From IMG/VR virus record IMGVR_UViG_3300023205_000110: 64,000 nt of DNA, one strand, 5' to 3'. This document shows positions 2,886 through 53,857 of the stretch, piece after piece; within the stretch, counting starts at the first letter, position 1; every line of letters starts with the position of its first letter. The notes under the pieces were generated by a model. That model ran no database searches, was not told the DNA's origin, and saw only the letters and a program-made list of their open reading frames with translations. The position numbers and the translations under genes were made by a program. The stretch is from an uncultured virus (IMG/VR IMGVR_UViG_3300023205_000110) (Duplodnaviria; Heunggongvirae; Uroviricota; Caudoviricetes; Crassvirales).

Positions 2886-3035
2886 ATGACAGTTAAAGAA
2901 CTTATAGATAAACTTCAACAATTTGATGAAGATAAACTTGTTTTAGTTGAAGATACTGAATATAAAGAATTTCAGGCTATTGATGTTGAACGGGTAGATG
3001 ATAGATTTATAATAATTACTACTACGATTAAATAA
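2886..3035 (+). CDS. small hypothetical phage protein (49 aa, not in the ORF track)
   Basis: ATG 2886 to TAA 3035: MTVKELIDKLQQFDEDKLVLV...; fills the gap between neighbours and has a common phage N-terminus. Confidence 0.7.
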   Translation: MTVKELIDKLQQFDEDKLVLVEDTEYKEFQAIDVERVDDRFIIITTTIK

Positions 3036-3054
3036 ATAATTAAATTTTAAAATT

Positions 3055-3504
3055 ATGAGTAAATTTATTGGAGTTAAAATGATTGAAGCTGTTCCTATGA
3101 CAGCTCGTGAAGCAAATGACAAAGGTTATAGAATTGGTAATCATTCTTTTGAAGAAGATGGTTATGAAGTAACTTATCCAGATGGATATAAATCTTGGAG
3201 TCCTGCTAAAGAATTTAAAAAAGCTTATTATGAACTTGAAGACCCTGCTGGAGATGTTCTTAAAGAAAATGATATTAAGAGATTTATTAAAGGTATTGAA
3301 AATGTAAAAGTTGGTACTAAAACAACTAATACTACTCTTACTTGTCTTACTGGATTTGAAGTTCATGGCCAATCAAGTTGTGTAAAACCTGAAAATTTTA
3401 ATTTAGGAATTGGTGCTGCTTATGCTCAAATTGAAGCTAAAAATAAAATTTGGGAAGGTCTTGGATTTGTTCTTCAATGGGCTAAATATGGACTAAAGAA
3501 GTAA
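3055..3504 (+). CDS. two-domain protein: GYxVxYxDGYxSWSP domain plus N4 gp49/Sf6 gp66-family domain
   Basis: DGYEVTYPDGYKSWSPAKEFKKAY followed by GFEVHGQSSCVKPENFNLGIG...KIWEGLGFVL. Confidence 0.7.
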   Translation: MSKFIGVKMIEAVPMTAREANDKGYRIGNHSFEEDGYEVTYPDGYKSWSPAKEFKKAYYELEDPAGDVLKENDIKRFIKGIENVKVGTKTTNTTLTCLTGFEVHGQSSCVKPENFNLGIGAAYAQIEAKNKIWEGLGFVLQWAKYGLKK

Positions 3505-3538
3505 ATAGTATTAATGCTAATGGTTTATATGTTATACG

Positions 3539-3567
3539 TAAAGCTGGCTCTAATAGAGCTGGCTTTA
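3539..3567 (+). terminator. probable intrinsic terminator
   Basis: aaagctggctct-aat-agagctggcttt hairpin (with G-U pairs) just after the 3504 stop. Confidence 0.45.
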
Positions 3568-3621
3568 TTAAATTTAATGATTAGCTTGGAACCGCTACGA
3601 GTGCTACGCACTCTTCGCTAT

Positions 3622-3734
3622 ACTCCCCGTAGAGGATGGAATGGTAGTTGTGCTAGTAATATTAGTATAGTTATTAATAATAATGATTATATTGATTGAA
3701 TGAATACTAGTCTATTCCATCCTCTACGGGGAGT
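3622..3734. repeat. perfect 21-bp inverted repeat formed by two copies of the dispersed motif around a 71-bp AT-rich spacer
   Basis: 3622-3642 actccccgtagaggatggaat is the reverse complement of 3714-3734 attccatcctctacggggagt. Confidence 0.95.
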
Positions 3735-3794
3735 TGAGCGTAGCGAAGCGGAGCGTTCTACTAATCCTTAAACTTATAGTCGTTGGCATGACTG

Positions 3795-3840
3795 AAACCT
3801 CGGTAGCTAAGCTAGTCTTACTACTGAGGTTTATTTTTAT
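3795..3840 (+). terminator. intrinsic terminator
   Basis: Stem aaacctcggtag / ctactgaggttt followed by atttttat. Confidence 0.65.
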
Positions 3841-3870
3841 CTTATTATTAAACTTAAATATATTATAATT

Positions 3871-4053
3871 ATGGTTGCATTTATTGTTCTTCTTGGAATT
3901 ATATTTGGTGGTGTTAAATTATTAGCTGTTGCTAATAATATTAGTGATAGTGAAGCTATGGATAAGTATAGTGGAAAACTATTTGTTATTGGTATTATAG
4001 TTTTTGTTATTCTTATGTGTGTTATTGGTAATAATGATGATGGTTTTAATTAA
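3871..4053 (+). CDS. small two-TM membrane protein
   Basis: 60 aa with two hydrophobic segments; AT-rich leader typical of Bacteroidota genes. Confidence 0.6.
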   Translation: MVAFIVLLGIIFGGVKLLAVANNISDSEAMDKYSGKLFVIGIIVFVILMCVIGNNDDGFN

Positions 4054-4208
4054 GATATTGCTATTATTAATAATCATATAGGCTATGCGCCTACGCACAA
4101 AGGTTGCACCTTTGATTGGCTTATAGAATAGACTAGATATTCGTAGTCGTTAAAGTGCTGATAATCAGCATAAAAGCTATGTTAAATCAACACCCGTAGT
4201 ATGACTGA

Positions 4209-4243
4209 TACAAAGATTAGTAGAACTAGTACAAAGATTAGTA
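4209..4243 (+). repeat. 14-bp direct repeat, 21-bp period (iteron-like)
   Basis: tacaaagattagta at 4209-4222 and 4230-4243, just upstream of repL. Confidence 0.75.
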
Positions 4244-4264
4244 TAATTTTTTATTCTATTAACA

Positions 4265-4292
4265 TTTGATATAGTTATATTTTTTATCTTTG
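4265..4292 (+). promoter_or_regulatory. Bacteroidota sigma-A-type promoter for repL
   Basis: TTTG at 4265-4268 and TATCTTTG (TAnnTTTG) at 4285-4292, 20 nt before the ATG. Confidence 0.5.
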
Positions 4293-4312
4293 GAATATAA
4301 AATTATATTCTT

Positions 4313-4879
4313 ATGCCTACATTTAAATCTATTAGTAAAAGTAATAAACCTAATAATAGTATAGTTAATTATGCTATTAATGATGTTAATACAGTAGCTA
4401 TTGTAACAAAAGATGGTGAAATTATTGATAAGAAAGATGTTCTTGTCATGTATGCTGATTCTAAAAGTCATAAACAACTTATTGATGAACAAAAGAAAAG
4501 ATTATATTTTAAAGTGTTTATTGATACTTTAGGTAATATTTATAATCTTACTAATAATGAAAAAAATGTTTTATTTTATATTAATAGTCATGTTCTTTTA
4601 ACAAGACAAAAACCAGATAAAACTAAACTTTATTTTTCAGTTAATGCTATGTTTTATGATGATTGTGAAGAAGAAACTAAAGTTCCAAAGCCATCTATAA
4701 AATCAGCATTATCTAGTCTTAAAGATAAAGGATTTATTAATCATTATAAAGATAAAGAGGATAAATGTGTTAAAGGTTGCTATGTTGCTAATCCTAAATA
4801 TATTTATAGTGGTACTCCTGAAGATTATGTTAATGATTGCTTTGAACTTCAAACTAAAGGTATTCTTGCATTAATATAA
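4313..4879 (+). CDS. repL: RepL-like plasmid replication protein (winged HTH)
   Basis: TKDGEII N-terminus, YFKVF..., HTH KPSIKSALSSLKDKGFI, G.YVANPKYIYSG; position matches my recollection of crAssphage RepL. Confidence 0.7.
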   Translation: MPTFKSISKSNKPNNSIVNYAINDVNTVAIVTKDGEIIDKKDVLVMYADSKSHKQLIDEQKKRLYFKVFIDTLGNIYNLTNNEKNVLFYINSHVLLTRQKPDKTKLYFSVNAMFYDDCEEETKVPKPSIKSALSSLKDKGFINHYKDKEDKCVKGCYVANPKYIYSGTPEDYVNDCFELQTKGILALI

Positions 4880-4880
4880 A

Positions 4881-4932
4881 ATAAAAGGGCTTGTCTAGGT
4901 AGTGATACCATAGGCAAGCCCTTATTTTTTTT
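4881..4932. terminator. bidirectional intrinsic terminator between the convergent gene blocks
   Basis: Stem aagggcttgtcta / taggcaagccctt, with an A-tract before and a T-tract after. Confidence 0.85.
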
Positions 4933-4950
4933 ACTAGATTCAAGTCCAGT

Positions 4951-7900
4951 TTATTCAAATATATCTTTACCTATATCTTTATAAGGTATAATACTAAGTA
5001 TATTTTCATCAACTTTATAATAACTATTATTATTAGGTAAATCAAGAACTCGATTAATACTACGAACAACAGGTATATTACGAACAGCCATAACTTCAAA
5101 CTTGTTCATACCTTTATATCTACCAGTAGTATATTCCTCAGTAAAATCTTCTTCAATAAGGAATCTAGCAGCCATAGCAGTAGTACCAAGTAAGTCATTA
5201 ATAGTTTGTCCAATAGCAACAGGACTAGACCATAGTTTTTTACCTTCAGCATAAGCACCAAATGGAGTAAATGAAGCAGCTTCAGAAGCAAGACGGTCAG
5301 CGTGATAAAGCATAAGATTATATATAATACTTTCATCATCATCTCCTCCCATACCAGTTATAGCAATTGCTCCAATAACAGCAGCACCTACATAAAGTAA
5401 ATCACCTAAATTACGTCTAATATTTGCTTTTTCATGTTCAGGAAGAAGTTCATAATTAAGTTTGAAATTAACAGCAAATGAAAGTAAATTCTTACCATAA
5501 ACTTGGAATGCTTTAAGAACATCACTTACATTATTAATTTCTCCTATGTTAGTTTCTTTAAATGGAATAGTCAAATAATCATAAAGACTAGTATAACTAC
5601 CTTTTTCAATAGTACCTAGAGTTTCATTATAATAACCATTCCAACGATAACGTTTCTTAAAACCGGGATAAAGATGTTTATGATATTGCATAACCATACC
5701 ACCCCACCAATGTTGTTCAATATTAGCAGAACCAAGTTTATCATAAACACCATGAACTTTCTTATTTACTTCACGAACTTTATCAATAAATTTAGCATAT
5801 TCTTTAAGAGTAAGTTTACTATCAGATTTTATTTGAGCAATTCCATCTTTAAGTTCAAACTGATTATAAACATCTGGAAGTTTAGCAAACTTTTTATCGA
5901 TATTCTTAATAAGTTCTTTACGTTTAGCTATATATTCTCTTTGTTGTTCTTCATTAAGATAAGTCTTAACAAAATCGAATATAGGATTAGCTTTAAATAG
6001 ATTATATTTAGCTCGTTTTTTATTATCAGCTTTAGCATCATCCATGAACTTATTGAATTGTTCAAATAGAGCTTGGTTCTCCTCTCCACGGGGAGTATTT
6101 ATTACAGACATAAGAGCATCTTGTTCAGCTTTACGATGATACATTTCTTTACTCATTATATCATAACCACCTCTACCATTATCAACAAGTCTATGAGATT
6201 TAAGCATAGCAAATAGCATAACATTTTGCATATAATGTTCACCAACAGATTGAGGACTAAATAGTAATCCACGAACTCTACGAATATTTTCTTTAAGACC
6301 TTCAACAGTACTAACTTCAGTTACTCTATCAAAATCAACTATATGACTAAGTTTAATAATAGCATCTTGAAGTGTACTACTATTTTCACTATACATATTA
6401 GCCATATAACTAACAGTTCCTTTAATCCATTCAGATTTACCAGCTTCCCAATCTTTAAGATTAATATATTCACCAGCAGCTCGTTCCATAAATATATTAC
6501 TAGAACCAGTAAGAACGTTAGCAATACCACCAGTAATATTCATCATCATATATTTACTACCAGCAATGTTTTGAGCAAGAGAACCTAGTTTAACTAGATT
6601 AGGAGTTTTATTATCTTTATATTGTTCAAATACAAGACGACGAATAAAGCTTCTAAGATGTTCACTAGTTCTAGTTTGTTTTTCTTGTTTATATTCAATT
6701 TCACCACCAGCACTAGCTTCTCTATTTTCACTTATACTACCTTTATAATTTATATCATAAGCAGTATTGCTAGTAATAATTTGGTCAGCAGTATAAAGAA
6801 GATTTTTAACTGTTTTAACAGCATTATATCTATTACTTTCAATTAAAAAACTATTAAATACTTCTTCCCAATTACGATTAAGAATATCATTATGAATTTT
6901 ATTATTCTTTTCAATAATCTCATCTTTAGCTTTAATAGCAGCAGCTTTACGTTTACTAAATTCTTCATCACTTTCATTAGGTTCTTTAAATTTAGGTATA
7001 GTAGGCAACTGTTGAGTATCTTTATTAACTAATTGAATTAATCTAGGATTAGGAATATCATAATCTTTATCAAAAGTTAAATCTTCATTATTTCTCCAAT
7101 TAGTATTATTAGGAACATTGGCTGTCCAACCAAGAAAACTAAGAGCTTGCTCAAAGTAATCTTTAACAGTCATATCTTTAGACTTAGGTAAAGCTGGAAG
7201 ATAACCCATATCAACATATCGCTTATTACTATTAGTAAAACAATACTTTTTCATAAGTTCATTTACTTTATTCATAAGTTCAAGTTGATACTCATTAAGA
7301 CTAGTATAATTAGGATTATCATATCCTGTTCCTACTTTGTACTTATTAACAAAACTACTATATTCTGGATTAACAAGTTCTTCTTTAGGAGTAATATGCA
7401 TTTGATTAATACGTGGTTCATAATTACCAACAACAGCTGAACCATCATCTTTAATCATTTGCATAGTAGTCCAAATACGAATAGGTTTAATAGTACGAGT
7501 ATATGGGTCAAAATAATGATTATCTCTATACCATTGTTTATATTCAACACTATCAATACCATATTTGTCAAGAACTTCTCTTTCTTTTATATAGTAATAT
7601 TGAGTAGTAGTTTCTCTAGTTCTCTTTTGAAGAATATTAATTGCAGCAGTTCTATCAATATCAGTCCATTTATCTAAATCTTTAGGTTTAATAATACCAT
7701 AAATAGTTCGATTAGGTCTTTCTGCAATAGTTCCATTTTCTTCAACTTGTTCACTAAATACTTCTAGCCATTTATCATAATATTTTTTACCTTTAGCAAA
7801 AGCTCTATTTTTATCAAGTTCGTATTGTTTCCAATTATAAGTAACATCACATTCATTTTCAATAAATTCAGCAACACGTTTTGCTTTAGCTTTATCAGTA

Positions 7901-10900
7901 CTCTTTTCACCTCTAGTAATTTCATTAAATACTTCAAAACCAGTCTTGAGTTGTTCTAAATCTTCTTGACTAATATCAGCAGTATTAAGAGTTCTAGTAG
8001 CATTATCAAAATATTTTTCAAGTATTTTATTAATAGCTTCTCCTACATTAATTTCTTCTTCGCTCTTAGATTTATTACCTGTAAGATAATTATAGAAATC
8101 AGCACGATAAATTCTAAGTTCATCTTCAGCAGAACGAATAATACCAACATAAGGCATACCATTGCCTTTAGTATATTTATATTTTCTAACTGTTTCAGCT
8201 TTAATAAGAGCTGCACGTTCTTCAGGTATTTTACGTCCATCAACTACATTAAATTCATCTTTAGCTTGAAATTCTTTAATAGCAAGATTAAGAACACTAT
8301 TACCTTTATTAGCATCTTTAAGTTCTTCAAACGCCCAATTTAAATCTTCTATATCTTTAATATCAAGAATATATCTAGTATTCTTACGAATCCATTCTTT
8401 AGCTTCATAATATTCAGGAACTTTCATAAGTTCTTCCATACTAATAAGAAGATTACCATTAGCATCACGTTGACTTTCATATTTACTAATAATAGAAAGT
8501 TGTTCTTTAAGTTTAGAATCAAATCCTTCTTTAGCTTGCTTATCATAGAACATTTCTTTAACTTTACGAATATTAGTTTGATAAGCACGAAGTCTTTCAG
8601 CTACATTTAAATCATGACCAATCTTTTTATTACCATCTTCATCATAAAGACTAGTAAGACTATCCATTTGAGCATATATACGTCCAAGTTCTTCATCTTG
8701 ACTTTGCGTAGTAACATTATCAGTCGCTTGACTTAAAATATCTCGTATTCTACCATTAAGTCTTTTATATTCAGCAAATTCTTTAGGAATACCATCATCT
8801 CCTTTTTTAAGACCAAGAAGACTTCTTTCAAGATTTATAATATAAGTAGAATATTCAATAGTAACATCATTACCATCTTCATCTTGAACTGTAATTGGTT
8901 TAAGCTGATGAATAGTAGTCATATCAATAAATTTAGCTTTATTAGATAAAGCAATAAGATGTTCAACACTATTTATACCAAATTTTTGTTCAGCTTCAAT
9001 AGCAGCATCTCTATATTTCTTCATCTTTTCTTCCCAAACAGGATTATTAGGTTGAATTAATCTACCATCATTATCAATTATACTATCAAGACTAACAAAT
9101 TTACCATCTTTAGCAGCTCTAGATTTAAGTTCTTTAAGATAATTTCTAAAGTCATTAGATTCTTTAATACCATTAAGACGACCTTCTTCAACAGTACCCA
9201 TTACATCTTTAAGTATATTCTGCAATACAAAGTTACGATTAGCACGAATATCTTGTATCCAATAGTCCATAAATCCAGTATCTCCATAAGCATCAAATTC
9301 TTTCATAAGACCACTTATATAATTAGGATTAGTAGTACGTAATTGAATCCATCTTTCAAACCAATCTTTTCTAGCAGAATGTACAGTAGTATTAGAATCA
9401 ACTTGATTAACTAATTTTTGAATCTTTCTAATATTCTCTTTAGTTTTATCATCAAGATTTGTACTATCAATATCAATTTCGCTAATAAGTTTGTATTTAT
9501 TCTTAAATGTATTAGCATTAAGAATAACATCTAAGAAACGATTTTGAAGTTGTTCATCTTTAAGAACTTTACCAATAACATCTTTATCGTTAATAGGTTT
9601 ATCAATACCGTCAATTTTAATAAAACGATTAATATCGTTAAGAATATTATTAGCTTCAACATCTATATAATTAGCTATAACTGATAATGAAAATTCAGAA
9701 TTATCAGAAAGACTACTACTATCAAGATAGTTAATTTCAGCATTATTTAAAGCATTAAGAACATTCTGGGCAGCAGGTTGACCATGACGAACAGCACGAG
9801 AAATAACTAAACTAGCATTTTTAGCAAATCTACCAATAGGAGTTTGGTCATCAATACTACTATATCTATCAGTATTACTAGTAACTCTATCTATTTCATT
9901 TTCATTAATTTTAATAAATAAACCAAGTTTATTATCTTCAATATTAGGATATTTAGCTTTATATTGTTTTAAATCATCGCTTAAATTAATAGCAGTAGTT
10001 CCATTAATGTTAAGATAAAATTTATCATTAATAGTATATATAGTATTATTCTCAAAAGGAGTATTCATAAAAGGCTGGAAATACTCATCAGATATATATT
10101 TACTATATAGTTCAGGAACTTCTTTATAACCTTTATTTACAGCTTCATTAATATTATCTTTAATACCATCAATAAATTTATCTCTTTTTTCTTGTTGAGT
10201 AAGACCTTTATAAAGAAGAACAGCTAATGGTTTATGAATATTATTATTAGTTATAATACTAGGTTCAATACTATTATAAGTTTCAAATGATTCAAGTCTA
10301 TCAATAGGATAATAAGCTAAAGTTCCATCATAAGTTCCTTTAATATATAAATTTCTATTAATTCTAATAACATTAACAGCATCTCCATTTCTTATTATTC
10401 CTACATTATCAAGATTTTCTTGACCATTAAAAGTAATAATACCACTTCTTTTTAGACTATAATTAATTTTATTATTAGTAAGTCTTTTAAATGTATAACT
10501 AGGACAATTAAAACTATTATAATTCTTACGAATAAAACCAATTATATCTTCAACATTATCTTTATCAACAAAACCATAACTATTAATACCTTTCATAGCT
10601 ATATCTCCAATAGCTATTCCGCCTTCACTCAATCCTCTAAGTGGAGTATTACTTATAAGTCTACTAATATTTCTAGTTCTAAATTTATGACCTTCAACAA
10701 TAAAAGCATATTTAACTAAATCAAGAGCTGTAAGTTTAATAAGAGGATTAGGATGATTCCAAGCTCTATCAAACAATCTATGGGCTTCATCATTAGTAAT
10801 ATCACCTTGTATGTAATTAATATATTGAATATTTACATTACGGCGATTACTTCTTTCGTCATTAGCAACTATTTCAATATGTTCAAATACACTACCATCT

Positions 10901-13900
10901 TGACTAAAATTACGTTTAATCCAATCAACTTTCTGAGCAGGAGTAAGTCTAGCAAATACATCAATTTCAGTTTGTGTAGGCTCAAATATATTTTTAACTA
11001 CAACATCATCTGTTTTAATATTAACTAATGTACCACTAACTCTACCAACTTCTAAAGCTCTAGATTGTCCAGTGCCATATTCTTTAATATATTTAGGATG
11101 AACAAAATCCCCATTAACAATAGTAACAGGTAAATTAAGATAAGAACTACCGTTATTACCTACTTCTAGTTTATTAATAAGATAATCTTTATAATCATTA
11201 TATAACTTTTCAGTCATTATTCCACCTTTAGTCCATTCTGCTATTCTATATACATAATCAATAAATACAGGATTAGCAGTTTCAAATACTTGTTGAGTAG
11301 CTTTAACACTAAGAGCAGTACTCATTTGTAAAAATGCAGCTAAACTAGGATAACTACTTTTAGATATATCAGATTTAATAAATGCATTTATACCACCACT
11401 AATATCAGGAAATACACTCTCTAACAGCAAGGTTTGACCCCCCGTAGAGTATGGAGCATAAATATTACTATTTTCAATAACAGTTCTAGCATCTCTAAAT
11501 ACTTTATCACTAGCATAAAAACTTTGTTTAGCACCATATTTATCAGCACTAAGAATATTAAGATTATTACTTATATCCTGTCCGATTGAGTTTAGCCGAT
11601 TGAATTGTGCTAGAACATAAAGGTCAAATAAAGCCTGCTGAATGCCATTCATTTCCCCTCTAAGACGAGATTTATATGCGTCTGATGAAAATATAAGGTC
11701 TGGTGATGAAAATGCGTCAGAAACGCTTAAATTGAATAATTTCTTGAAAGTTTCGCCATAACTTTTATCAATAGTTTCAATTAGCTTTTTACGTCCAGCA
11801 AAATTAACTTTTTCACCAAAACCAAGATTATGAGCAACTTCTCTAATAGCTTCAGTAAGCGGATTTTTAGTACCTTCTGCAAGAACACTATTAGTTTCTT
11901 TCCATTTACGAACTAGTATATCAATAGCAGGTTGCCACATAAATCCAATAGCAGTATCATAATTACTTCCAAAGTCAACAATAGTTTTGAAAGCATTAAA
12001 TGTATAAGTATTTTCATTATGTATAGCCCCCTCTTTCATAACATCGAGAATATGAGCAGTAGTCTGAGAACTATAAGGATTAATCAAATAGCCATCAACA
12101 TTCTTATCATCTCCAGACCAACCAAAATTTTTATGAGTAATACGAATATGTTTATTACCAATAGTTTCAACATTTTCTTTACCATATCTATTAACAGCTT
12201 CTTGCTCACTAATCACATCAGTAGTGTACATAACTTTAATACCTTCGCTATGATTAGCTTTAATAACATTACCAATACTCATAAAAGTATCTCTATTAAC
12301 ACTGATACCTTTAAGTTTAATACCAGAAGTAGCAGCATCAAACCAATCAAGTTGAGTAAAGAAATCACTAGGAGCAACAGTTGTTTTATTAGCACCAACT
12401 ATTTCTGCATAAGTTTCATTAGCTTCTTTGACATTTTCAAAGTTAGAAGTAGTAGTATTTTCTTCAAATGCAGCAGGATTATTAAGTATATCAATAAATG
12501 ATTGAATAATAGCATTAGTTCTAGCAGCTTGACTACTTGTATCCTCCACGGGGAGTTTCAAGTATGATTCGTAAGACTTAAGTCCACCATCATTAGCAAT
12601 TTTTTCAACAACTTTAAGATTGCCATTATAACCTTCAAGAGTAGCATTAATAGCATCTTCGCTATTTTTTAAAGAAGCTCTAATATTACCTTGTTTATTA
12701 TAAGTCTTACCAAGAATTTTACGACTAGCTTTATCTACATTATCTTTAACATAATTAATATATCCTACTTCATCTTTAGTATATCTGGCATGAGTAATTT
12801 CAGTTGGAATACCTTTAACAAGATTAAATGTTTTAGACATACCATAAACACTATCAACGTCAAAGTCAGAACCAGTTTGAGTAACCCATTCATCAGGAAC
12901 AACAACAGTACTACCATAAGCATCTGGAAGAAACTCTTTAACATACATAATACATATAGATTGTTTACCTTCAGTAGGAATACGATAACCAATCATAGTA
13001 CGTAAGCTATCAGGAACTTGTTCAATATTTAATCCTTTAAGTTTACTACTCCATCTAGGAAGTTTAATTTCAGTATAATAAACAGGAGTGCCATCAACTT
13101 CTCCAATCTTTTTATATTGAAGTTTACTATCCGTTTGAGTTTGTTTATCAACTTTAAATCCAAAATCAGATAGCTGAGCAGCGTGCCAACCACTAATAAG
13201 TTGTCTAGTAATATTAGTATTAAAATAACTATTAGCAATACTTTCAAGTTTACTATTAATATTAGATAAAAATAAAGGAAGATTATTAAATCCAGCACTA
13301 TCTAAATCGAAAAACTCAAGAAGAGCTTTTTCAACTCCTTGTTGTTGAGCATTTTCTTTAAATCTATCAAAGAATACAAAACGATTAAGATTTTTAATAG
13401 TACCATTAGAATTTAAATCAATATGACCATTATCATCTAATCCAATACCAAGTTCAGCACAAGTTTTTTCAAAACTATTTCTAATATTAGCTACATAGTT
13501 ATTAAATACTTTACTCTTAAGGTCATTAAGTTCAGTTCGATTAGGAAGATTATCAAGCATTTTCTTCATAATCTGAATAGCAGCTTTATTACTAGCATCA
13601 ACCATATGTTGAGGAACTTCTTGCTGACGATAAAGATAATTATAACTAAATAGTTCAGAATTATCAAATACATTATTATCAAATTCTTTAAGAGCTTCAT
13701 CAGTTAAAACACCATCGTTATTCCAAAGTGTCATTCTATTATGTTGTGCAACTTTAACAGTTTCAACAGTATTAATTTGATGAACACCTCTATTAGTCAT
13801 TATATTATAAACTTTTTCAAGTTCTGTTCCTTTAATAAGTTTAGGAATAAGAACAAACTCAGCGTTCTTTACTTGTCTAGGAACTTCAATACCAACAGTA

Positions 13901-16900
13901 GTATCATAATATAAATCATAATAGAAATTCTTTTGAATTTGAACTTTATTAGCAAATTTAGTCCAATCAATTTTATCTATTGGAGTATCATCTGTAAGAC
14001 TTTGAATAAGTCTAGCATATTTATCTAATTCACCAGCAGCAGTAATACGACGAATCCATTCTTCAAGAGTAATATAAGATTGAGCATCATTAGTATTAAC
14101 TTCTCCTTTAAACGGTTCTAGTATTCTTTCTCTGTCTTTTTTATCAAGTCCAGCTTTTTTAAGTTGGTCATCAAGTCTATCAATAACAACTTTATCAGAA
14201 GCTTTAAAAGTATTATAAATGGTAACACCCCTAAATTTATCTTGAAGAACTACTTTTTTACGTTTAGTAACTCCATTAACAGTATAAGGAACAGTAACAG
14301 CATTACCTTTAATAGTTATATCATATAAATCAGTAGCTATATCTAAATCATTTTTAGTAAAATCAGTATTACCAAAAGGATTACCACTAGCTTGTACTTC
14401 TTTAATACGTTTTAGAATAGCTTGACCATTCTTATAAAAACTTTGGTCACCACCATACATATCGTACATACTATCTCTAACAAGATAATCATTAACTAGA
14501 AATTCAGCTAAAGATTCATTATTAATCCTATCATCAATAAATGTACCATATTTATTTTTAAGTTCTTTATAACCATTAGTTATATATTCATTTAACCAAT
14601 TAGCAACAGCATCTTCAAGAGCAACACGTTGTTCTGCATTAAGAACTACTTGATTATTAACATAGCTAAGTCCACGTGTAGACCCCCCGTAGAGGATGTC
14701 AATAGTCTTACCATACCCAATTAGTTCATTAAATGCTCCATTACTATTAGGAGTAATTTTACTAACTAAACGTTTAAAACTAAATACTCTACCAGCTAAA
14801 ACTTTGTGCCCATCTTTAGTAATAAATACATTACCTTTTCCATCTTTATGATATTGATTATAAAAATGTTCAGGTTTATTATTATAAATATTACTAAATT
14901 CAAAATCTCCATTAGTTAAAATAGGATTACCATTAGCATTAGTCTTAAACATTACATTAACAGCTTGAGCCATATTAGTAAGTTCTTGAATAGCTATATT
15001 ATAATACTGTTTAAATAATGGATGTTCTCTATTTATAATTTTAGTTCCATCTTCTAATTGACTTCGTAATCCATTAAGACTATATCTAGGAGCAGTAATA
15101 GTAAAGTTTTTAGGAGCATCACTAGGTATAGGAAGTAAATAATTAGCAGTAGGAGTTTCAGAATTATTAATATCAGTCATAAATAATCCCATAGCAGTAA
15201 TTAAATAATCACCGTCACTCATACTACGATATAAGTCATTATTATTATTATCTAATTCACTAATACCATTAAGAAGAGAAGTTTTAAACATACTACGAGC
15301 ATATTCAGTAAGTTTAGGAGTTCCATTTCCAACTCTTCTAAACAATCCATAATTAATTATATTACCATTACTATCTCTATGTTCAAGAAGTAAATTACTA
15401 TAATCATATTGATGACTAGCAAACTTTTGTTTAGCATAAGCTTCAACCATAGCGTTTTGCTCTTCAACAGTAGATTTATCATCATTGATTATTTTAGCAA
15501 TATTAGTAATAAAACTTCTATTAATAACATCAGAACTTAAATTACCTTCGGGATTACGAGAATTAAGTTCAACAGGAATATAAATAATATCTTTAAAAAC
15601 ATCAGCCATTTGATATATAATAGAAGTATCACCTCTATTAATAAAACTATCAGGCATTTTAGTTTCTTTATCCTTTTTAAGCGCTTCTACATATTTATTA
15701 TAATTTTCAACTGTACGATTAATAACATTGGCAAAATTAATAAGATTATTAGCCATAGCTACACGACCAATCTTAGCAATAGCTAAATTAAAACTAGCTT
15801 GATTAATATCTGGAAATATTTCTTTAAAAGCATCATATAAATAAAGATTAGCATGAGGAGTATTTTTATATCTATCATATATACGAAACTTTTCACGAGC
15901 AGTAGGAACACGATTAGTAATAATATTATTCTTAACATTATTATAAAAAGTATTCTGTAAAATAGTACGAGAATCAGTATTAGGATTAGTTACACGAGCA
16001 CGAACATAACTATTACCATTAGAATCAGTTTGAATATAAGTTTCAATTTTAGATATAATAGGTTTATTAAACACCATCATATACTTATTAGCAAATACTT
16101 TATTTTTGCTAAGTAAATCATGTAATTGAATCAAACATTCACAATTTGGAACAGTTTCAGATATACGTTTAAGACTAGCTATAAAATTATCTACATTACT
16201 AGTATCAGCACTAGCATATAATATTTTAGATAAATAATTAGCATCAGAAAAAGTAACAACTCCTAATTCATTATTAGTATCAAAAGGATAACTTCCATTA
16301 TCAAGTTGAGAAGCAGCAGTAAGTTTAGGTAAACTTGCAAGATGATATTTAATAATTTCTTCTACGTGTTTATTAAAATCTTTAACTTCACCAATACTTA
16401 AATTCCAAAGTTGAGTCATCAAATCAATACCATCATCTATACTATTTTCATCACCTTCAGTAGAAGTTTCATCAAGATAACCGCCTAATTCTTCATAATC
16501 AGTAGTTTGATATAACTCATCTCGTTTAATAAGTTTAGCTACATTTTTATTATTAAAAAGAGCTTCATTAAATTCAGTATTAGTTAAAGAACGAAGTAAT
16601 GCACCATAATTAAAATCTTGAGCATCACCATATTTACGAAGAAATGCACCAAGACCATTAATTTTAGTAGCAGGATTTGGATTATTAATAAAACTATTAA
16701 GTTCATTATTTTTAGCTTCATCACTTCCAGCTAATTTCTTAGCGCGTTTAAGTCCAGCATTAATAACAGTTTCATTAGTACGTTTTTTAATTTCATTAAA
16801 ATTTAATGGAGCACCATTATATAGAAAATTAAAACTAAGTTTATTCATAATATCAGCCATATAAGTAATAGCTGTATCTCTAGCTTTAATTGTACTAAAC

Positions 16901-17293: not shown

Positions 17294-20200
17294 CTACATA
17301 CAGCTAAAACTGATGCGCCCTGTGTCAAGCAAAGTGGCAAATTTGGACTGTTGTGCTATCGGTAAACGGCTAGTTAATTCAGCCATATTTGACACTATAT
17401 CATCATCAACACTACTAAACATATCAAGTCCATCATTAAGATTATCATTATTATAATTATAATCTTGACTGTTATCTTCATTAGGATTTTCAGTTTGTTC
17501 TGTACTAGCAGTTTCTTCTTCAAACTGAAAAGTTCCTTGAATAGCCTCTTGATTACTTTCTTTAGGCATTTTCTTAATAGCTTTATAAGCATCTCTAGCA
17601 GCAGCTAATAAACTATCTTCATTAATCTTAATACCTAACATATCAGCAATAACTTCAAGAAGTCTACTAAATAAAGTCTTACGTTTATTAACTTTTCTAT
17701 TATCATATTTAATTTCATTAAGTGCAGTCATAAGAGCATTACTAGTAATACTTTCAACTAGAAATTCTTCAAGAGCTTCACTTGTATTAAAATTCTCAAA
17801 TAGATAAGGTTTAAGTCTTTCTTTAGTAGCATCATCTTGAGTATCAAGCCAAGCTTTAAATTTATCATATATAGGTTTAACTAAAGCAAGAGCTTGTTCA
17901 GTATTATATTTAGTATAAAGTTGTCTATGTAAACTTTCATGAAGTATAATATTAACAACTCGATAAACTCTTTGACCAGCAATAGCAGAACTATTAAGTT
18001 CAATAGTATCTGTATCACGATGATAAACAGCATTAACTTGATTACCATTATTATTAGTAATACTATCTACAACTTGAATATTCTTAGGCAATATACCAAT
18101 CTTTTGAAGAGCATTAATATAATCAATAGCAGTTTGGTCATTAGCAAAATACTTTTTAAGTCCACGAGTTAAATTCTTAGCAGTTATAGCAGATTCAAAA
18201 GCATTAAAATTAATAGCATTAAGAGTATCATCTAACATGAACTCTGATAACTGTTCAGGTATTGCTCCATCCTCCACGGGGGGTCTACCCTCAAGTTCAT
18301 AAGTAATATCGAGTTTAGAATGAATATCTATTTGCCAATTACCAGCAGTTTCATTAGTATTAGTATTAGCTAATTTAGTTCTAACTAAACCATTACTAAT
18401 AATAAAATCTTGATAACTATTATAACTATAAGTTTTATCATCAATATTTATAATAGTTTTACCATTTTCACGATAAATATATTTATTAGTTTTATCATTA
18501 GTTTTTGTACTATCATTAATAAAATCTTTACTAATAGCAAATTGGGCATAGTTAAACATTTCATCAATAACAGGACGAAGAGCATTATCTAATTCATCAA
18601 TAGTACTAGCATTAATACCATAACTTTTACCTATTTTAAAAGCACTATTAACAACATAAGGAGAATTAATAATAATATTACGTTTATAATTACCAGCATC
18701 AGAATTAATAGTAAAAGCATAATCTTTACCATTAAAATGTGCACCTTTAACATAAAAACCTATATTAGTAGGATTAATACTAATTTGAAGTCCATTATTT
18801 CTATCTCCGTTAATAAGTTTATTATTTCCAAATATATCTCCAAGACTTTGTTTAAGTTCGCCAAAACTTATTTTACCACTAATATAATCTCTACAAAGAT
18901 TATTAACTTCATTCTTAATAGAATTAATAATACGTCGAACATCACTTTTAAGTAGATTACTATTTAATGGAACTTGTTTACAAAAAGCATATAGAGAAGT
19001 ACCATCACTACTTGGAATACTAATAACAGGCATACCATTAGTAGTAAGATTTTCAATAATAGTAGGTTTACTTTCTCCATTAAGATATACTTGACCTTGT
19101 ACAACTACACCAAGTTTATTAACATCTTCATTATAATTAACTACTGTTTCTTGTACATCATTCCATTCGCCATTAGCATCATCAATAGTATTAAGAACTC
19201 CATATTTAACATTAACAGCTCTAATCTTACCTTTAAAATCACCTTTTACTATTGTAATAGCTTGGTCATAACTATTAAGAAGATTATTAAACCAACGATT
19301 AATACTAGCTTCATGACTATTTTCATAAGGCTGATTAAATATATATTTAGTAAGATTAACAAGATGTCCAGCTAAATCAAAACTTGCAACAGGAGTAGTA
19401 AAGTTTTTAACAATATCAGGATATTTAACTTCAAATTCTTTAAATAAAGTATCAAGTTCTTTATTTGTAACTTCTTCTTTAACGGCAAGTTCATATAAAT
19501 GACCAATAAATTCTTCATCAAATCTGTCACCGTCAAGAATACTAATTAAAGCATCTTTAAATGGAGAAATAACTTGACCATTTTCAGCATGAATATTATA
19601 TTTCCAACCTTGATTAACCATATCATAATTACCAAACTTATCAATATTTGGAACTCCTATATAACCAATAATTGTATCATTAGCAAATATATCAATACGT
19701 TTAAGTTTAACATTATATATGGCTTCTAAATAATCACCTTGCTTAATACTAGTAAATGCTTTAACATTTTCATTCTCTACTATATACTTAAGATTAACAT
19801 TATTAGTATGTTCAACTTGAAGTCTTTCAAGACGTTCTTTAGTAATACCGTCAACGTATTGAACAAATTGTCTAGCATTAAGTTTCTTAATAGTTGATTC
19901 ATCAGTAGCACGATATTTACCTTGATTATTAGTGCTGGCGTAAAGATAGTTTTTTATTTGATTAAACAAATAATTTTTAATAATTTTATTACCTGTAATA
20001 CTATCTATATATTCAACTAATTGACCAATACTAAGATAGACTTTACCATTAACAATTTTACCTCTAGTATTACCTTCACTATCAATACTATTAGCAAAAT
20101 CATTCATAACAGCTTCTATATTGCGTTCATTACCTGTAACAGTAGCATAAGTAGCATTAAGTAATAAACGTCTAGTACTATCATCTTGAATAGAACTATA

Positions 20201-23164
20201 TAAACTACCTCCTGTAAGACCATCAATAATATTATTAACTATATCAGCAGCTTCTGTTTGTTCAAATCCAGCTTGACTAAGTTTATCAATAAAAGACTGT
20301 CTAGCATTAAGTAAATCACTACTAGTAGATTCATGTCCTAAAGAATCTTCTAAATCAGCAATACTTTCATAAACTAAATCAGTACCTATTTGACCACGTT
20401 CAAAATCATCATCTGGAAGAGTATTATTAACTTCAGATTTAGGAGTACTAATAGGTTCTTGAGAAATTGGTTGTTCAGTTTGAGATTGAGGTTGTTCAGT
20501 ATTAGTAGGCTCACTAGGAACCGCTTCGCTTCGCTCCGCTATACTCCCCGTGGAGGATGGAGATGAGTTAGTATCATCTACATCAGTTTCATTAACTTCA
20601 TTAACATCAGGATTAACAGGAGCAACTTCCTCTTTAGGAGTATTATTAACATCGTTTTCAATTTCTGCAATTTCAGCTAATTGTTCTAATGTAGTTTTAA
20701 GATGTTCATTACCTTTAGAACTTAAATCAAGTGCAGCATAAGCATCTCTAATAACTTTATCTATATTAGGTTTATTACCATTATTAGCATCTTTAATAAC
20801 AGAATTAACATAATCTTTACCATATTGTTTATAAGCATTACGTAAATCGTCCATAACTTTATTAACAATCTTTTTACGACTATTATCAAAGAAGTTATTA
20901 AGATAAGTTATACGAGATTTAATATTATCATCAGATAGATTAAGTTGATTTTTATTAACTTCAACATTAATCTCAGCATTAACAACTTCTGCTAAATCTT
21001 TAAATACTTCATTATATTGTTTTTGAAGTTGAATAGCTGATTGAACATCATTTTTATTTTCAATATCAATAGGAATATAAAGTTTATTAATAGCATCTAA
21101 TCGCTCATTTAATTGAGCAATACGTTCTTGTTTAACAGAATTATTAATTGCAGCGTTATCTTGAATAGTTTTAATATCTCTTTGAATACTATCAATAATA
21201 TGTTGATAAATACCATTCTTAGCAGAATTAATATCAACATCTTCAATATGATTATTTGTAATATCTTGATTTAAAACATCATTAGCCCAATTAAGAAGAT
21301 TATTATAATTTTCTTGACGATTACGAGCATGAACCATTTGGGTAGCTATAATACGACCAACTTCAAATCCGCCACCAAGTCTATTAACTTTATTTAAAGT
21401 AGTATTATATTCATTTTTAAGATTATTAATTTCAGTTTTAAATCTATTAATAAGTTCATTACTATCTTGTTGTTGTAATCCAAGTTTATTAGTAATACTA
21501 TCATTAAATTCTTTACTATTAATAGAACTTTCAAGAAGTCCTAAATTACCAGCGTTCATAGAATTAATAATAATATTATCCATATATTCTTTTTCAGCTA
21601 TATTACGAAGTTCTTCTTCAGTACCAGTAATAATATCTGGATTAACCTGTTGACCATTTTCATCAGTAATAGTTATAAATGGATTTTTACCATTAGCAAT
21701 ACTATTAAGTCTTTCTTGATATGCTTGAAAAGTAGCAGTACGACCAAGAATTTCGTTTTCTCTTTGTTTTTCGGCAGAAGTCCAATCTTTATCAAGACGT
21801 TTATTAATAAACTCTCCAGCTTTATTCATAACACTACTAAAAGTAACACCACCAAGAGCACCCCAAAATGCTTGTTCCCATAACATTGGGTCTTGAAGAT
21901 AATCTTTAATAGTTTGTTGAGGAATATCTTTATCAAATACTTTTTTACCATTATATAAACCATCTTGACTAGCTATATAATTAATAGCTTCTTCAACCCC
22001 TTCTGTCCATTCAGCTCTAACACCATGAAGAATATCATTACCTATATCTTTTAATGTACTAGTAATAGCTTGTTTAGTAGTTTTATTACTTAAAGCATTA
22101 GTAATTGCAGCAGCATCATCAATATTACTATTAAATGCAATATTTAAATTTCTAAGTCTGGAACTAGTTGTATTACCACTTAAAGCATTTTTCCATAAGT
22201 TCTTTAAACTATAAACTTGCCATACGTCAAAAAGAACATTAGCCCAATCTTCAGCAAAAGTAATATCAGCACTATTTTTAGCAATATCTTTAGCTACTTC
22301 TTCATCAGACATATCTTTATATTTAGGATTATTATTATAAAACTCTTCTCTTTGTTTATCATTCATATTAGCAAGTTGAGTTTTAGAATAATCTTCAATA
22401 TCATTATAAGTTTGTCTAGCTTCTTGATAATTTTCAAGATAACGAGAAGGAACTCCAATAGCAGTAGCTTCTGCTATTCTACCAGTAATGGCTCTACTCT
22501 TTTGAGTCATATTAATAGCATTAGCCATTTTATTAGCTAATTTATTAAACTTTATACCTTTACCTAATAAAGAAACACCTTTAGCAAGACCAGTACTAGG
22601 AACCATAAGAGTTAAAGAACTAGCTATACTAGGAGCATTGCTAGCCCACCAAGCAAAATCTCCAATATCAAAAGCAGCATTAGGATTTTCTCTATATATA
22701 GCTAAACGCTCATTAATAGATTCTTTTAAAGATTCAAGTTCAGAACTTATTTCAGATTGATAATCATTAGGACTATTACTAACCATATTATAGAAAGCAT
22801 CAGCTAAATCTGCAAAACCAATAGCTGTTCCAACAGTAATTTCATTACCAATTTGCCCAATCATTCTTAATCCTTGTTCCCAATTACTTTGATTAACAGC
22901 ACGTTCTTTATCAAGTTTTTCTGGGTCATCAACAGGATTAACATAAACATCATAAGGAGCATATTTATCTATATCATATTGATTAAGATTATATGATTGT
23001 CCAGCAATACGACTAAATAAATGACCACGACCCCGGTCACTAATAGAAGTGCCGGGGTTGTAATCAACTAAAGTAGGAGGCTGTATAGCCCCCTTTTTAG
23101 TTTTAGGATTATATTCAGGATTAGGTGTTTTATTACCACCTTGTAGAAACTTTAATACATCCAT
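17294..23164 (-). CDS. large ejected (cargo) protein with a C-terminal zincin-like domain
   Basis: 1956 aa; NAVY...IEL...ILHESLH (HExxH, ~17927-17947)...LEEFLVE; adjacent to the RNAP as in crAss-like phages. Confidence 0.75.
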   Translation of the reverse strand: MDVLKFLQGGNKTPNPEYNPKTKKGAIQPPTLVDYNPGTSISDRGRGHLFSRIAGQSYNLNQYDIDKYAPYDVYVNPVDDPEKLDKERAVNQSNWEQGLRMIGQIGNEITVGTAIGFADLADAFYNMVSNSPNDYQSEISSELESLKESINERLAIYRENPNAAFDIGDFAWWASNAPSIASSLTLMVPSTGLAKGVSLLGKGIKFNKLANKMANAINMTQKSRAITGRIAEATAIGVPSRYLENYQEARQTYNDIEDYSKTQLANMNDKQREEFYNNNPKYKDMSDEEVAKDIAKNSADITFAEDWANVLFDVWQVYSLKNLWKNALSGNTTSSRLRNLNIAFNSNIDDAAAITNALSNKTTKQAITSTLKDIGNDILHGVRAEWTEGVEEAINYIASQDGLYNGKKVFDKDIPQQTIKDYLQDPMLWEQAFWGALGGVTFSSVMNKAGEFINKRLDKDWTSAEKQRENEILGRTATFQAYQERLNSIANGKNPFITITDENGQQVNPDIITGTEEELRNIAEKEYMDNIIINSMNAGNLGLLESSINSKEFNDSITNKLGLQQQDSNELINRFKTEINNLKNEYNTTLNKVNRLGGGFEVGRIIATQMVHARNRQENYNNLLNWANDVLNQDITNNHIEDVDINSAKNGIYQHIIDSIQRDIKTIQDNAAINNSVKQERIAQLNERLDAINKLYIPIDIENKNDVQSAIQLQKQYNEVFKDLAEVVNAEINVEVNKNQLNLSDDNIKSRITYLNNFFDNSRKKIVNKVMDDLRNAYKQYGKDYVNSVIKDANNGNKPNIDKVIRDAYAALDLSSKGNEHLKTTLEQLAEIAEIENDVNNTPKEEVAPVNPDVNEVNETDVDDTNSSPSSTGSIAERSEAVPSEPTNTEQPQSQTEQPISQEPISTPKSEVNNTLPDDDFERGQIGTDLVYESIADLEDSLGHESTSSDLLNARQSFIDKLSQAGFEQTEAADIVNNIIDGLTGGSLYSSIQDDSTRRLLLNATYATVTGNERNIEAVMNDFANSIDSEGNTRGKIVNGKVYLSIGQLVEYIDSITGNKIIKNYLFNQIKNYLYASTNNQGKYRATDESTIKKLNARQFVQYVDGITKERLERLQVEHTNNVNLKYIVENENVKAFTSIKQGDYLEAIYNVKLKRIDIFANDTIIGYIGVPNIDKFGNYDMVNQGWKYNIHAENGQVISPFKDALISILDGDRFDEEFIGHLYELAVKEEVTNKELDTLFKEFEVKYPDIVKNFTTPVASFDLAGHLVNLTKYIFNQPYENSHEASINRWFNNLLNSYDQAITIVKGDFKGKIRAVNVKYGVLNTIDDANGEWNDVQETVVNYNEDVNKLGVVVQGQVYLNGESKPTIIENLTTNGMPVISIPSSDGTSLYAFCKQVPLNSNLLKSDVRRIINSIKNEVNNLCRDYISGKISFGELKQSLGDIFGNNKLINGDRNNGLQISINPTNIGFYVKGAHFNGKDYAFTINSDAGNYKRNIIINSPYVVNSAFKIGKSYGINASTIDELDNALRPVIDEMFNYAQFAISKDFINDSTKTNDKTNKYIYRENGKTIINIDDKTYSYNSYQDFIISNGLVRTKLANTNTNETAGNWQIDIHSKLDITYELEGRPPVEDGAIPEQLSEFMLDDTLNAINFNAFESAITAKNLTRGLKKYFANDQTAIDYINALQKIGILPKNIQVVDSITNNNGNQVNAVYHRDTDTIELNSSAIAGQRVYRVVNIILHESLHRQLYTKYNTEQALALVKPIYDKFKAWLDTQDDATKERLKPYLFENFNTSEALEEFLVESITSNALMTALNEIKYDNRKVNKRKTLFSRLLEVIADMLGIKINEDSLLAAARDAYKAIKKMPKESNQEAIQGTFQFEEETASTEQTENPNEDNSQDYNYNNDNLNDGLDMFSSVDDDIVSNMAELTSRLPIAQQSKFATLLDTGRISFSCM

Positions 23165-33728: not shown

Positions 33729-34625
33729 TTATTTAGGAAAAGTAAAGTTATAAAAGAACTCATTCCAACCACTATCATCATCACTTTGTTCATCTAATAG
33801 AATACTAGTCTTAATATCTTTCTTCATACTTTCCCATAGATAGAAAGGATTAGTTCCATATTGACTAGCAGAAAGATTAAACACAGGATGTTTATATCCT
33901 CTCATAAGCATACGAGCCATACAATAATAAGTAAGACCTTGAATTAATTTACCGTTAGCAGGTATAACAGGAATCTCACAATGATAATTATCACTATATT
34001 GAGTTTCAATATCTTTATAAACAACTGTTATACAAGTATCATTAAAATTAAGTTCAATAGTATTACCTCCAATAAGAATATAATTATGATTTGACTTATC
34101 ATATCCTCCACGGGGGGTCTGACAATGAGAATGAACTTCATGCTGACATCTTGGACATTCAGTATTATTATGAACTGTATAAACAACAGGATTACATCCT
34201 ACTTTACCAGTATCAATAACTTCTCTAGTTCTAGAACCATTAGGACAACAATCATAAGGCATACCAAGATAGTCTTTATTAGTAGCACGCTCCGGACTTT
34301 CGTCCTCCGCTTGACCCCCCGTAGAGGAGGGAGCAGATTCAGTATCACCACATCTATATTTACTAGTATCAGCTCTAGGTACTTCACAACCATTACTATC
34401 ATATACTTTAAGACCGTCATCAATAAGACAACATTTACTTTTAGCTATCTTATTAATGACGGTTAGTTTCATTTTCTTATCAACTTTACGAAGAACTTTA
34501 AGTTCATTCATAGCATCAACACACCAAGCAGGAACTCTAGGAATCCAATCACTTCCATCAGGATTGAAATCATTATCAAGTTTACCAATTATATGTTCTA
34601 TCGTAATCGTTTTATTATTTGCCAT
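33729..34625 (-). CDS. tail tubular/ring protein (P22 gp4-like)
   Basis: Start reassigned to ATG 34625 (MANNKTITIEHII), 4 nt after the upstream stop; Y.L.G..IELNF....I.V.Y..I...EIPVIP motif. Confidence 0.6.
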   Translation of the reverse strand: MANNKTITIEHIIGKLDNDFNPDGSDWIPRVPAWCVDAMNELKVLRKVDKKMKLTVINKIAKSKCCLIDDGLKVYDSNGCEVPRADTSKYRCGDTESAPSSTGGQAEDESPERATNKDYLGMPYDCCPNGSRTREVIDTGKVGCNPVVYTVHNNTECPRCQHEVHSHCQTPRGGYDKSNHNYILIGGNTIELNFNDTCITVVYKDIETQYSDNYHCEIPVIPANGKLIQGLTYYCMARMLMRGYKHPVFNLSASQYGTNPFYLWESMKKDIKTSILLDEQSDDDSGWNEFFYNFTFPK

Positions 34626-39487: not shown

Positions 39488-39695
39488 AACTTTATTATTT
39501 TAAAATTTAATATTGTAAATATTTATGTACGTCCATAGAGTCACTTTTTAGGCTCATAGCAAGACTTTCATTAAATCATGTACAGTTAATCAGCTAGGTT
39601 TAAAACTAGCCAAATTCGGCAAGCTATACTCCCCGTAGAGGATGGAGCAGGCTTGAATCAGTCAATCAAATCTAGCTAATCAATCTTATACAATC

Positions 39696-53794: not shown

Positions 53795-53857
53795 ACGTTC
53801 TCTAGGTTTACTAAATTCATAGTGTAGACCCCCCGTAGAGGATGGAACACATTCACA

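Follow-up and report, generated by a model that had tools for sequence, protein, structure and literature searches.

A head-to-head doublet of a dispersed, conserved motif at the end of the replication module of a crAssphage genome

Among the viruses of the human gut, crAssphage ranks first in abundance. Several families of short, genome-wide sequences invite comparison with the locus described here. The DNA uptake sequences and uptake signal sequences (DUS/USS) of Neisseria and Haemophilus are strongly over-represented cores of about 10–12 nt that occur in both orientations, within and between genes. Repetitive extragenic palindromic (REP) doublets forming hairpins (REPINs) resemble the present element in size and layout. 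The stoperators of mycobacteriophages L5 and Bxb1 are repressor sites distributed over the genome, mainly intergenic and oriented with transcription. In this study, we analysed a non-coding element at positions 3591–3760 of a 64,000-nucleotide stretch of DNA from an uncultured virus (the window; IMG/VR record IMGVR_UViG_3300023205_000110). The original prediction for this locus was a bidirectional replication origin, consisting of two inverted binding motifs around an AT-rich unwinding region. The element is real, conserved and functional-looking. A motif, here called the box, recurs throughout the genome, and of its head-to-head doublets this one is the largest. Our tentative interpretation is that two facing copies of a conserved recognition motif make up the element and that the doublet can in addition fold as a long hairpin; we do not read it as a replication origin. 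The box motif appears to be previously unreported and family-wide in Intestiviridae crAss-like phages.

The window is a strain of prototypical crAssphage, Carjivirus communis. It matches the 98,042-bp contig G001:C7 over its whole length at 94–98.5% identity in the reverse orientation, and nine Carjivirus records match the region 3000–5000 at 93–96% identity. C7, the nearest relative and complete at ~98 kb, was used as the reference genome. Where the forward gene block, i.e. the replication module, reaches its 3′ end, the element occupies a non-coding gap. Its two 30-nt arms (3613–3642 and 3714–3743) are 90% complementary and lie 71 nt apart. Within them, the 21-mer at 3622–3642 recurs perfectly inverted at 3714–3734, as originally predicted, compared with 0.00 matches expected from 100 shuffles. 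The spacer had been described as AT-rich. With 22.5% GC it is below the window mean (29.4%), but 17% of the 71-nt windows reach or exceed its AT content, so that AT-richness does not set it apart here.

The arms are not confined to this locus. Their core, CCCCGTRGAGGATGGA, recurs on both strands, within and between genes: the 16-mer core, allowing up to two mismatches, matches the window 16 times, with 0.00 matches expected, and four further near-copies of the 21-mer arm are present in the window. With the same tolerance, the 16-mer has 28 matches in G001, all of which are on the phage contig C7, and 21 in G002; the reversed pattern matches neither. Both in C7 and in Delmidovirus cr110_1, no 12-mer is commoner than the 12-mer core. 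Copies with at most one mismatch number 32 in C7, 28 in cr110, 30 in cr11, 30 in cr3, 14 in crAss002, nine in cr107 and none in crAss001. The Carjivirus consensus is TAGAC(C/T)-CCCCGTRGAGGATGGA, and the family-wide core can be generalized as CCCC[GA]T[AG][AG]AGGA, exact copies of which number 28 in Carjivirus, 28 in each of two Delmidovirus genomes, 27 in Diorhovirus and 21 in the Jahgtovirus crAss002. The generalized core is absent from the Steigviridae phage crAss001, and its reversed control is absent from all six genomes; k-mer analysis of crAss001 (MH675552) also revealed no equivalent box. The most over-represented 10-mer of crAss001 has 12 copies (observed/expected ~190), a much weaker signal that may stem from repeated coding sequence.

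Outside the core, the flanks of the box vary by genus in the manner of dialects, and the Carjivirus boxes fall into two sub-types (ACC..GTA and ACT..GTG). A GC-rich extension of the CGCT type, like that of the arms of the element, is also carried by other box copies, some of which are inside genes. Neighbouring boxes are ~3 kb apart on average (coefficient of variation 0.61–0.84), and their density is one per about 3.3 kb. Open reading frames (ORFs) of at least 100 amino acids contain 91 of 120 copies (76%); since such ORFs make up ~91% of the genomes, there is a moderate enrichment of boxes outside them. A search of the main-text literature, including a Crassvirales review, the crAss001 structural atlas and a preprint on the phi14:2 RNA polymerase, brought up no account of the motif. 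The promoter motifs given in the text of that preprint are of a different, σ70-like type. A reading of the box as part of a promoter of the extracytoplasmic function (ECF) type was also considered and dropped, there being no conserved positions upstream of the box.

Many of the copies are fixed in position and are constrained as nucleotides. Coding copies in the window occupy five of the six possible frames, and the 44 coding copies in C7 and cr110 comprise 19 sense and 25 antisense sites, without orientation bias relative to transcription. Among the 32 C7 copies, 12 could be aligned to cr110 by protein context (six others gave no tblastn match, and for 14 no frame stayed open over the 240 nt to either side), and a box is found at the orthologous spot in six of these 12. 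The box at the primase site is kept in all five genomes compared, representing four genera. In this gene (44183–45394 in C7, and its orthologues) the box encodes ILYGG or FLYGG in two genomes and PLRG in the other three, while the flanking protein aligns. The box at the SNF2 site is likewise kept in five of five genomes. At the tail-tubular, PolB and ligase sites it is present in two to four genomes, with decayed versions in the others, and some copies elsewhere are lineage-specific or decayed. Since the same orthologous sites are read in different frames, the constraint lies on the nucleotides.

Neighbouring boxes obey a pairing rule. All 18 pairs of adjacent boxes no more than 250 nt apart are inverted and none is direct. 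The pairs closer than 150 nt are convergent without exception (11 of 11), whereas six of the seven pairs 150–250 nt apart are divergent, those six all being in coding sequence. A perfect convergent partner within 150 nt is found for 20 of 130 sites, and a partner matching at 10–11 of 12 positions for four more; the remainder (82%) are solo sites, with no partner above background. A convergent doublet near the 3′ end of the replication module is present in Carjivirus (the element itself), in both Delmidovirus genomes and in crAss002, and Diorhovirus has at the same module end a single box with a degenerate partner. Along the genomes, the orientation of neighbouring boxes alternates beyond chance in five Intestiviridae genomes (83 of 127 steps, a count that is not independent since the genomes are related), and the first ten sites of C7 alternate perfectly.

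On the reading that we tentatively favour, the box (16–20 nt, GC-rich) would be a cis-acting recognition sequence for a putative conserved, sequence-specific factor, encoded by the phage or by its host. Most copies would act as single sites. Where copies lie close together and face each other, they would make a double site that, as single-stranded DNA or as RNA, also folds into a stable hairpin. The doublet at 3591–3760, insulated by terminator-like hairpins on both sides, would most likely serve as a strong binding or nucleation site combined with a transcript-end or insulator hairpin.

The same distribution could also be produced by a selfish repeat, in which the doublet is a complete non-autonomous element resembling a REPIN or a miniature inverted-repeat transposable element (MITE), and the solo boxes are half-elements or decayed remains, with a transposase or gene conversion as the means of spread. 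The two ~21-nt inverted repeats with a ~70-nt spacer, a GTAG within the motif, the two Carjivirus sub-types, the lineage-specific or decayed copies and the long-form copies inside genes are all compatible with such an origin. However, a Y1 transposase of the RAYT (REP-associated tyrosine transposase) type (PF01797) was found in none of the four genomes or records searched, while the control genomes matched. Neutral relics would not be expected to keep their core at orthologous sites across genera and frame changes, and the location of 91 of 120 copies within long ORFs, the 82% of solo sites and a copy number that is near-constant at 27–28 across three genera also speak against this explanation, which we consider improbable.

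Variation of the element was assessed in a sample from one IMG/VR scan and one metagenome scan, giving at least 86 loci; the metagenome part comprised 80 of at least 120 stretches and was fetched with flanks. Of the at least 86 loci, 77 are this element and the other nine are a second doublet locus, at which the orientation label is meaningless. The diversity alignment contained 78 sequences over a 900-nt stretch, and 56 distinct sequences were used for folding and covariation. Variation over the 900-nt stretch is lowest in the arms and in their GC-rich extensions. In the arm extensions outside the search pattern, nucleotide diversity (π) is 0.006 (3613–3624), 0.002 and 0.000, while the spacer has 0.056 and the 60-amino-acid ORF next to the element 0.034. 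In this respect the arms behave as the recognition sites that they were predicted to be. Conservation in close relatives was likewise borne out: all nine Carjivirus records retain the element, with 96.7–99.4% identity. Loose ends of contig alignments at 3619–3716 proved to be other box copies.

The sample also bears on whether the perfect 21-bp inverted repeats flank an invertible DNA switch, the short spacer flipping between them, an option that had been put forward together with the origin. The spacer is flipped relative to its flanks in none of the 77 listed copies and in none of three further references (BK010471, MK238400 and G001:C7), assemblies representing the majority form, and no invertase gene was found nearby; inversion is therefore barely credible. 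At the degenerate R position of the motif, the left and right arms read A/T in 46, A/C in 27, G/C in two and G/T in two of the 77 listed copies. The arms are thus mismatched there in 29 of the 77 (27 A/C and two G/T), as would be expected of two motif copies varying independently rather than of a stem under strict pairing.

The element nevertheless folds well. The spacer is partly self-palindromic and lengthens the stem, and the whole unit is one long imperfect palindrome. The 191-nt stretch containing it folds with -89.2 kcal/mol on the plus strand (z -10.2) and -66.6 kcal/mol on the minus strand (z -7.8). In the population, 98.1% of the cells are paired in this structure, which was derived from the window's own sequence, and the stem-base pair changes in a compensatory manner in five of the 56 distinct sequences. 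Two outer mini-hairpins had been predicted, of which only the left one (3599–3613) stands, with z -2.9 and a compensatory G–C to A–U change in six of the 56 distinct sequences; the right one is not significant (z -1.6, with 18 of 200 shuffles equally good), and its stretch pairs instead with the left outer arm. The two terminator-like hairpins flanking the unit, originally placed at 3539 and 3795, are real. T1 folds with -18.1 kcal/mol on the plus strand (z -5.7) versus -11.7 kcal/mol on the minus strand. T2 (3795–3832; -19.0 kcal/mol, z -4.2) also folds better on the plus strand and is followed by a U-run. A consensus terminator scan flagged neither T1 nor T2. The big hairpin itself has no following U-run, as an intrinsic terminator would.

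These properties raise the possibility of an element acting at the RNA level, in which a ~160-nt plus-strand hairpin between T1 and T2 stabilizes or ends the mRNA of the replication module, or is processed (e.g. by RNase III) to small RNAs pairing with boxes in phage mRNAs. The plus-strand fold is better by 22.6 kcal/mol through G–U pairs, the mean folds over the 56 variants are -85.6 (plus) and -67.4 kcal/mol (minus), and T1 and T2 share the preference for the plus strand. Compensatory and G–U to A–U changes are seen, and the convergent polarity of 11 of 11 close pairs yields the same hairpin from either strand. On the other hand, 27 of the 77 listed copies have an A–C mismatch between the arms on the plus strand, and the scarcity of C on this strand means that mismatches of the G–T type are expected from composition alone. 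A minority haplotype with six members rewrites the inner spacer (~14 positions differing) and loses the energy advantage of the plus strand (-73 to -78 versus -74 to -80 kcal/mol). The solo boxes occur in both orientations, and 82% of sites have no partner with which to pair. Rfam gave no match in the window at the gathering threshold, the best permissive match being a chance microRNA precursor (38 bits versus a threshold of 130), and ARAGORN detected nothing meaningful in the window. Such a role at the RNA level is in our view unlikely, although it is, together with an origin-accessory role, the main rival of the reading favoured here.

A RepL-type plasmid replicon, to which the element would belong as origin or origin accessory, is the reading closest to the original prediction. 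The boxes would flank a melting region, RepL or another box-reading initiator would start replication there, and the single boxes would titrate the factor as DnaA boxes do. The RepL-like gene downstream was confirmed; its start at 4313 lies 555 bp past the end of the element, and not about 570 bp as first estimated. A sister doublet at 62264–62400 of C7, with a long GC-rich arm and a ~100-nt AT-rich spacer, lies ~260 bp upstream of repL1 (61348–62004; PF05732-positive, E 5e-5); between the doublet and the gene are two direct repeats of 34 nt (94% alike). Provided that the cr110 record is circular, a doublet in it (106/259) would precede a RepL-like gene by ~450 nt. Origins of crAssphage have been predicted by Schmidtke et al. 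(PMC10983915) using Ori-Finder, GC skew and Nanopore coverage. Their text describes two putative origins, both close to where the forward block begins, one beside the first repL and one ~2.6 kb from it, and places one Ori-Finder origin `directly upstream' of the first repL, without coordinates; the sister doublet may coincide with it.

However, the RepL-like neighbour of the element at 3591–3760 varies between strains. The repL slot is hypervariable and is found in three states: with the 188-amino-acid RepL-like protein of the window, with an unrelated-looking RepL (BK010471, MK238400 and MT006214) or with nothing (MW067002 and one contig). Alignment to BK010471 and MK238400 breaks at 4065, and the N-terminal part of the 188-amino-acid protein is unrelated to the RepL of BK010471, only a short C-terminal motif being common with RepL proteins. 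In MW067002 a small ORF is followed directly by the RNA polymerase gene; the cassette is absent and the element is retained. Four more of the nine Carjivirus records lack the adjacent cassette, as judged by span or annotation, and a 16.5-kb RNA-library contig joins 4057 to 4886 with eight other letters between. Moreover, the cassette carries 21-nt direct repeats of its own (4197–4238; tandem, 81% alike, 75–116 nt upstream of the RepL-like start codon), which look like iterons or an operator. RepL was not detected by tblastn (E up to 1) in cr3 and crAss002, despite their 27 and 21 boxes; this absence rests on tblastn because the Pfam RepL model misses even BLAST-supported RepL homologues of Delmidovirus. 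The RepL paralogues are only ~25–30% identical, while the box is constant. A search of a plasmid collection returned chance AT-rich matches only.

The Delmidovirus homologues just mentioned (tblastn E down to 4e-18) are at 60021–60617, 86343–86894 and 88708–89442 of cr110_1 and at 75980–76546 and 8746–9456 of cr11_1. They are annotated as `transcription regulator' or hypothetical, and RepL-like paralogues in the Crudevirinae are thus more widespread than annotations show.

Replication signals also point elsewhere. The cumulative GC skew has its maximum at 4–5 kb, exactly at the coding-strand switch and within ~1.2 kb of the element, which is the side usually read as a terminus. Because GC skew here follows the coding strand, the skew alone does not report replication. 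According to PMC10983915, the coverage peak, like the predicted origins, is at the start of the forward block, i.e. at the other end of the module. Taken together with arms dispersed at ~28 copies per genome, a spacer that is unremarkable in composition and a variable part of the element, and an element that outlives the repL cassette, this argues against the bidirectional origin of the original prediction, and we regard an origin function as unlikely. A replication terminus or dimer-resolution site at which the gene blocks converge would account for the proximity to the strand switch and the skew maximum, and for the conservation of a doublet near the module end in three genera. Such a site is, however, very improbable: neither the ORFs around the element nor the forward block yielded a recombinase domain, the same boxes occur genome-wide in mixed orientation, which is unsuited to polar fork barriers, and the skew is that of the coding strand.

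The interpretation as a recognition doublet has its own difficulties. Boxes shared by the window and C7, its 98%-identical relative, differ at about the genome-wide rate (~5 differences in ~256 nt), so per-site selection is weak or slow. The spacing within doublets varies from 26 to 153 nt, more in keeping with base-pairing than with a binder that is a rigid dimer; an operator of the latter kind was judged unlikely on this ground. Covariation lends the long hairpin little support: both sides have changed in three pairs, a count also attained by 120 of 500 shuffles. The six divergent haplotypes break four inner-stem pairs. The alternation of box orientation is not predicted by a plain binding-site model. 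Both large AT-spaced doublets of Carjivirus precede RepL-like genes, leaving room for a role in replication, and neither Pfam nor PHROGs revealed a DNA-binding candidate beside the element. Phylogenetic profiling for the protein that would read the box was hampered in that the crAss001 homologues were mostly too diverged for tblastn and PHROGs gave no functions.

In a broader form of the recognition reading, which is conceivable but doubtful, the ~28 copies, many of them position-fixed in essential genes whatever the reading frame, would constitute a genome-wide code. A conserved putative factor would read it to mark, silence, compact or otherwise organize the phage genome, for example during non-lytic, plasmid-like carriage, and the doublets by the repL cassettes would be nucleation or control centres. 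CrAssphage has been reported to persist without lysis (PMC10983915). One motif present ~28 times per genome in four genera, and kept through the frame changes of the primase, points to a central cis-acting system that is apparently undescribed. The 16–20-nt box offers an experimental handle as a bait, and the culturable crAss002 has its own dialect. Palindromes of boxes resemble origins, yet sequence alone does not suffice to call them so.

Table 1. Coordinates of the doublet, its surroundings and the other box copies in the window
Feature	Position	Strand or block	Remarks
N4_gp49/Sf6_gp66-family gene	3055–3504	Forward block	PF13876 in the C7 copy
Hairpin T1, terminator-like	3538–3568	+	14-bp stem with G–U pairs on + strand only; weak U-tract; follows N4_gp49-family gene
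Left GC-rich arm extension (`long form', CGCT-type repeats)	3591–3624	+	Contains mini-hairpin 3599–3613
Left 21-nt arm	3622–3642	+	Box core CCCCGTAGAGGATGGA at 3625–3640
Spacer, 71 nt	3643–3713		Partly palindromic; most variable part of the element
Right 21-nt arm	3714–3734	-	Box core 3716–3731 on - strand
Right GC-rich arm extension	3732–3760	-	Pairs with left outer arm; π 0.002 and 0.000
Hairpin T2, terminator-like, with U-run	3795–3843	+	Upstream of 60-amino-acid ORF 3871–4053
Hydrophobic ORF, 60 amino acids	3871–4053	Forward block	3′ of the element
Variable repL cassette	4065–4885	+	Lies outside the element, shown as context; missing or exchanged in other strains
RepL-like ORF, 188 amino acids	4313–4879	+	
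RNA polymerase gene, 4070 amino acids	4951–17163	-	Convergent with forward block
Box, 1 mismatch	11440–11455	+	Inside RNA polymerase gene, antisense
Box, 2 mismatches	12538–12553	-	RNA polymerase gene, sense (LPVED); orthologous copy in cr110
Box, 2 mismatches	14685–14700	+	RNA polymerase gene, antisense (ILYGG)
Box, exact	18266–18281	-	1956-amino-acid gene, sense (PPVEDG)
Long-form box (CGCT-type GC-rich extension and core)	20517–20561	+	1956-amino-acid gene, antisense; resembles left arm
Box, 1 mismatch	26557–26572	-	Coding, sense (PRRG frame)
Box, 1 mismatch	26996–27011	+	Coding, antisense
Box, 1 mismatch	34317–34332	+	Antisense in tail-tubular-like gene (SSTGG); cr110, cr11 and cr3 have orthologous copies
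Box, exact	39631–39646	+	Intergenic; orthologous Delmidovirus spot is an inverted pair
Box, 1 mismatch	43392–43407	+	Coding, antisense
Box, 1 mismatch	43652–43667	-	Coding, sense
Box, exact	53831–53846	+	63-nt gap between two - strand genes
Box, exact	57912–57927	-	Coding, sense (PPVEDG)
Box, exact	60635–60650	+	Coding, antisense

The features of the locus and the remaining box copies of the window are collected in Table 1. Two variable stretches were seen upstream of the element. In two RNA-library contigs, 128 nt at 2908–3037, in the region of a small ORF (2886–3035), are swapped for 121 other letters, indicating a small variable slot. Within the N4_gp49-family gene, positions 3225–3504 show a π of 0.17 in the 78-sequence sample, far above the surroundings, which two allele classes or misalignment may explain.

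Set against known systems, the boxes share with the stoperators of L5 and Bxb1 a short asymmetric site in about 25–30 copies per phage genome, and an arrangement of this kind would fit the non-lytic persistence reported in PMC10983915. They differ in location and orientation, 76% of the boxes being coding and the coding copies being divided between 19 sense and 25 antisense sites. The resemblance to origins with iterons or DnaA boxes, such as the P1 oriL within repL, lies in the paired site-like repeats by an AT-rich stretch upstream of a Rep-family gene. In contrast to those origins, the boxes are genome-wide and not clustered, the spacer is unexceptional, the element persists without the rep cassette, and skew and coverage point elsewhere. 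With REP sequences, bacterial interspersed mosaic elements (BIMEs) and REPINs mobilized by RAYT, the boxes have in common a ~20-nt GC-rich repeat with GTAG and inverted doublets with a short spacer that give long hairpins, next to singlets. As in that class, close pairs form hairpin doublets (11 of 11 convergent), but only 24 of 130 sites are partnered. The boxes are mostly intragenic and not extragenic, a single unit is not clearly palindromic, 82% are solo and no RAYT-type Y1 transposase was found in the genomes or records searched. Rickettsia palindromic elements provide a precedent for a GC-rich, nucleotide-level repeat tolerated inside the coding genes of an AT-rich genome. Those elements are longer palindromic insertions, whereas the box is short, mostly non-palindromic and position-conserved between genera. 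The uptake sequences differ from the boxes in that the latter are in a phage genome with no known uptake machinery or receptor, at a lower density, of ~1 per 3.3 kb, and with many positions conserved across genera. In other respects the likeness is extensive: a core of ~10–12 nt is vastly over-represented, in both orientations, within genes irrespective of frame as well as between them; hairpins at the ends of genes arise from inverted pairs; there are lineage dialects and a fairly even spacing; and single sites come and go without a change in their overall number. By analogy, the distribution of the box therefore seems closest to that of uptake or self-recognition sequences such as DUS/USS.

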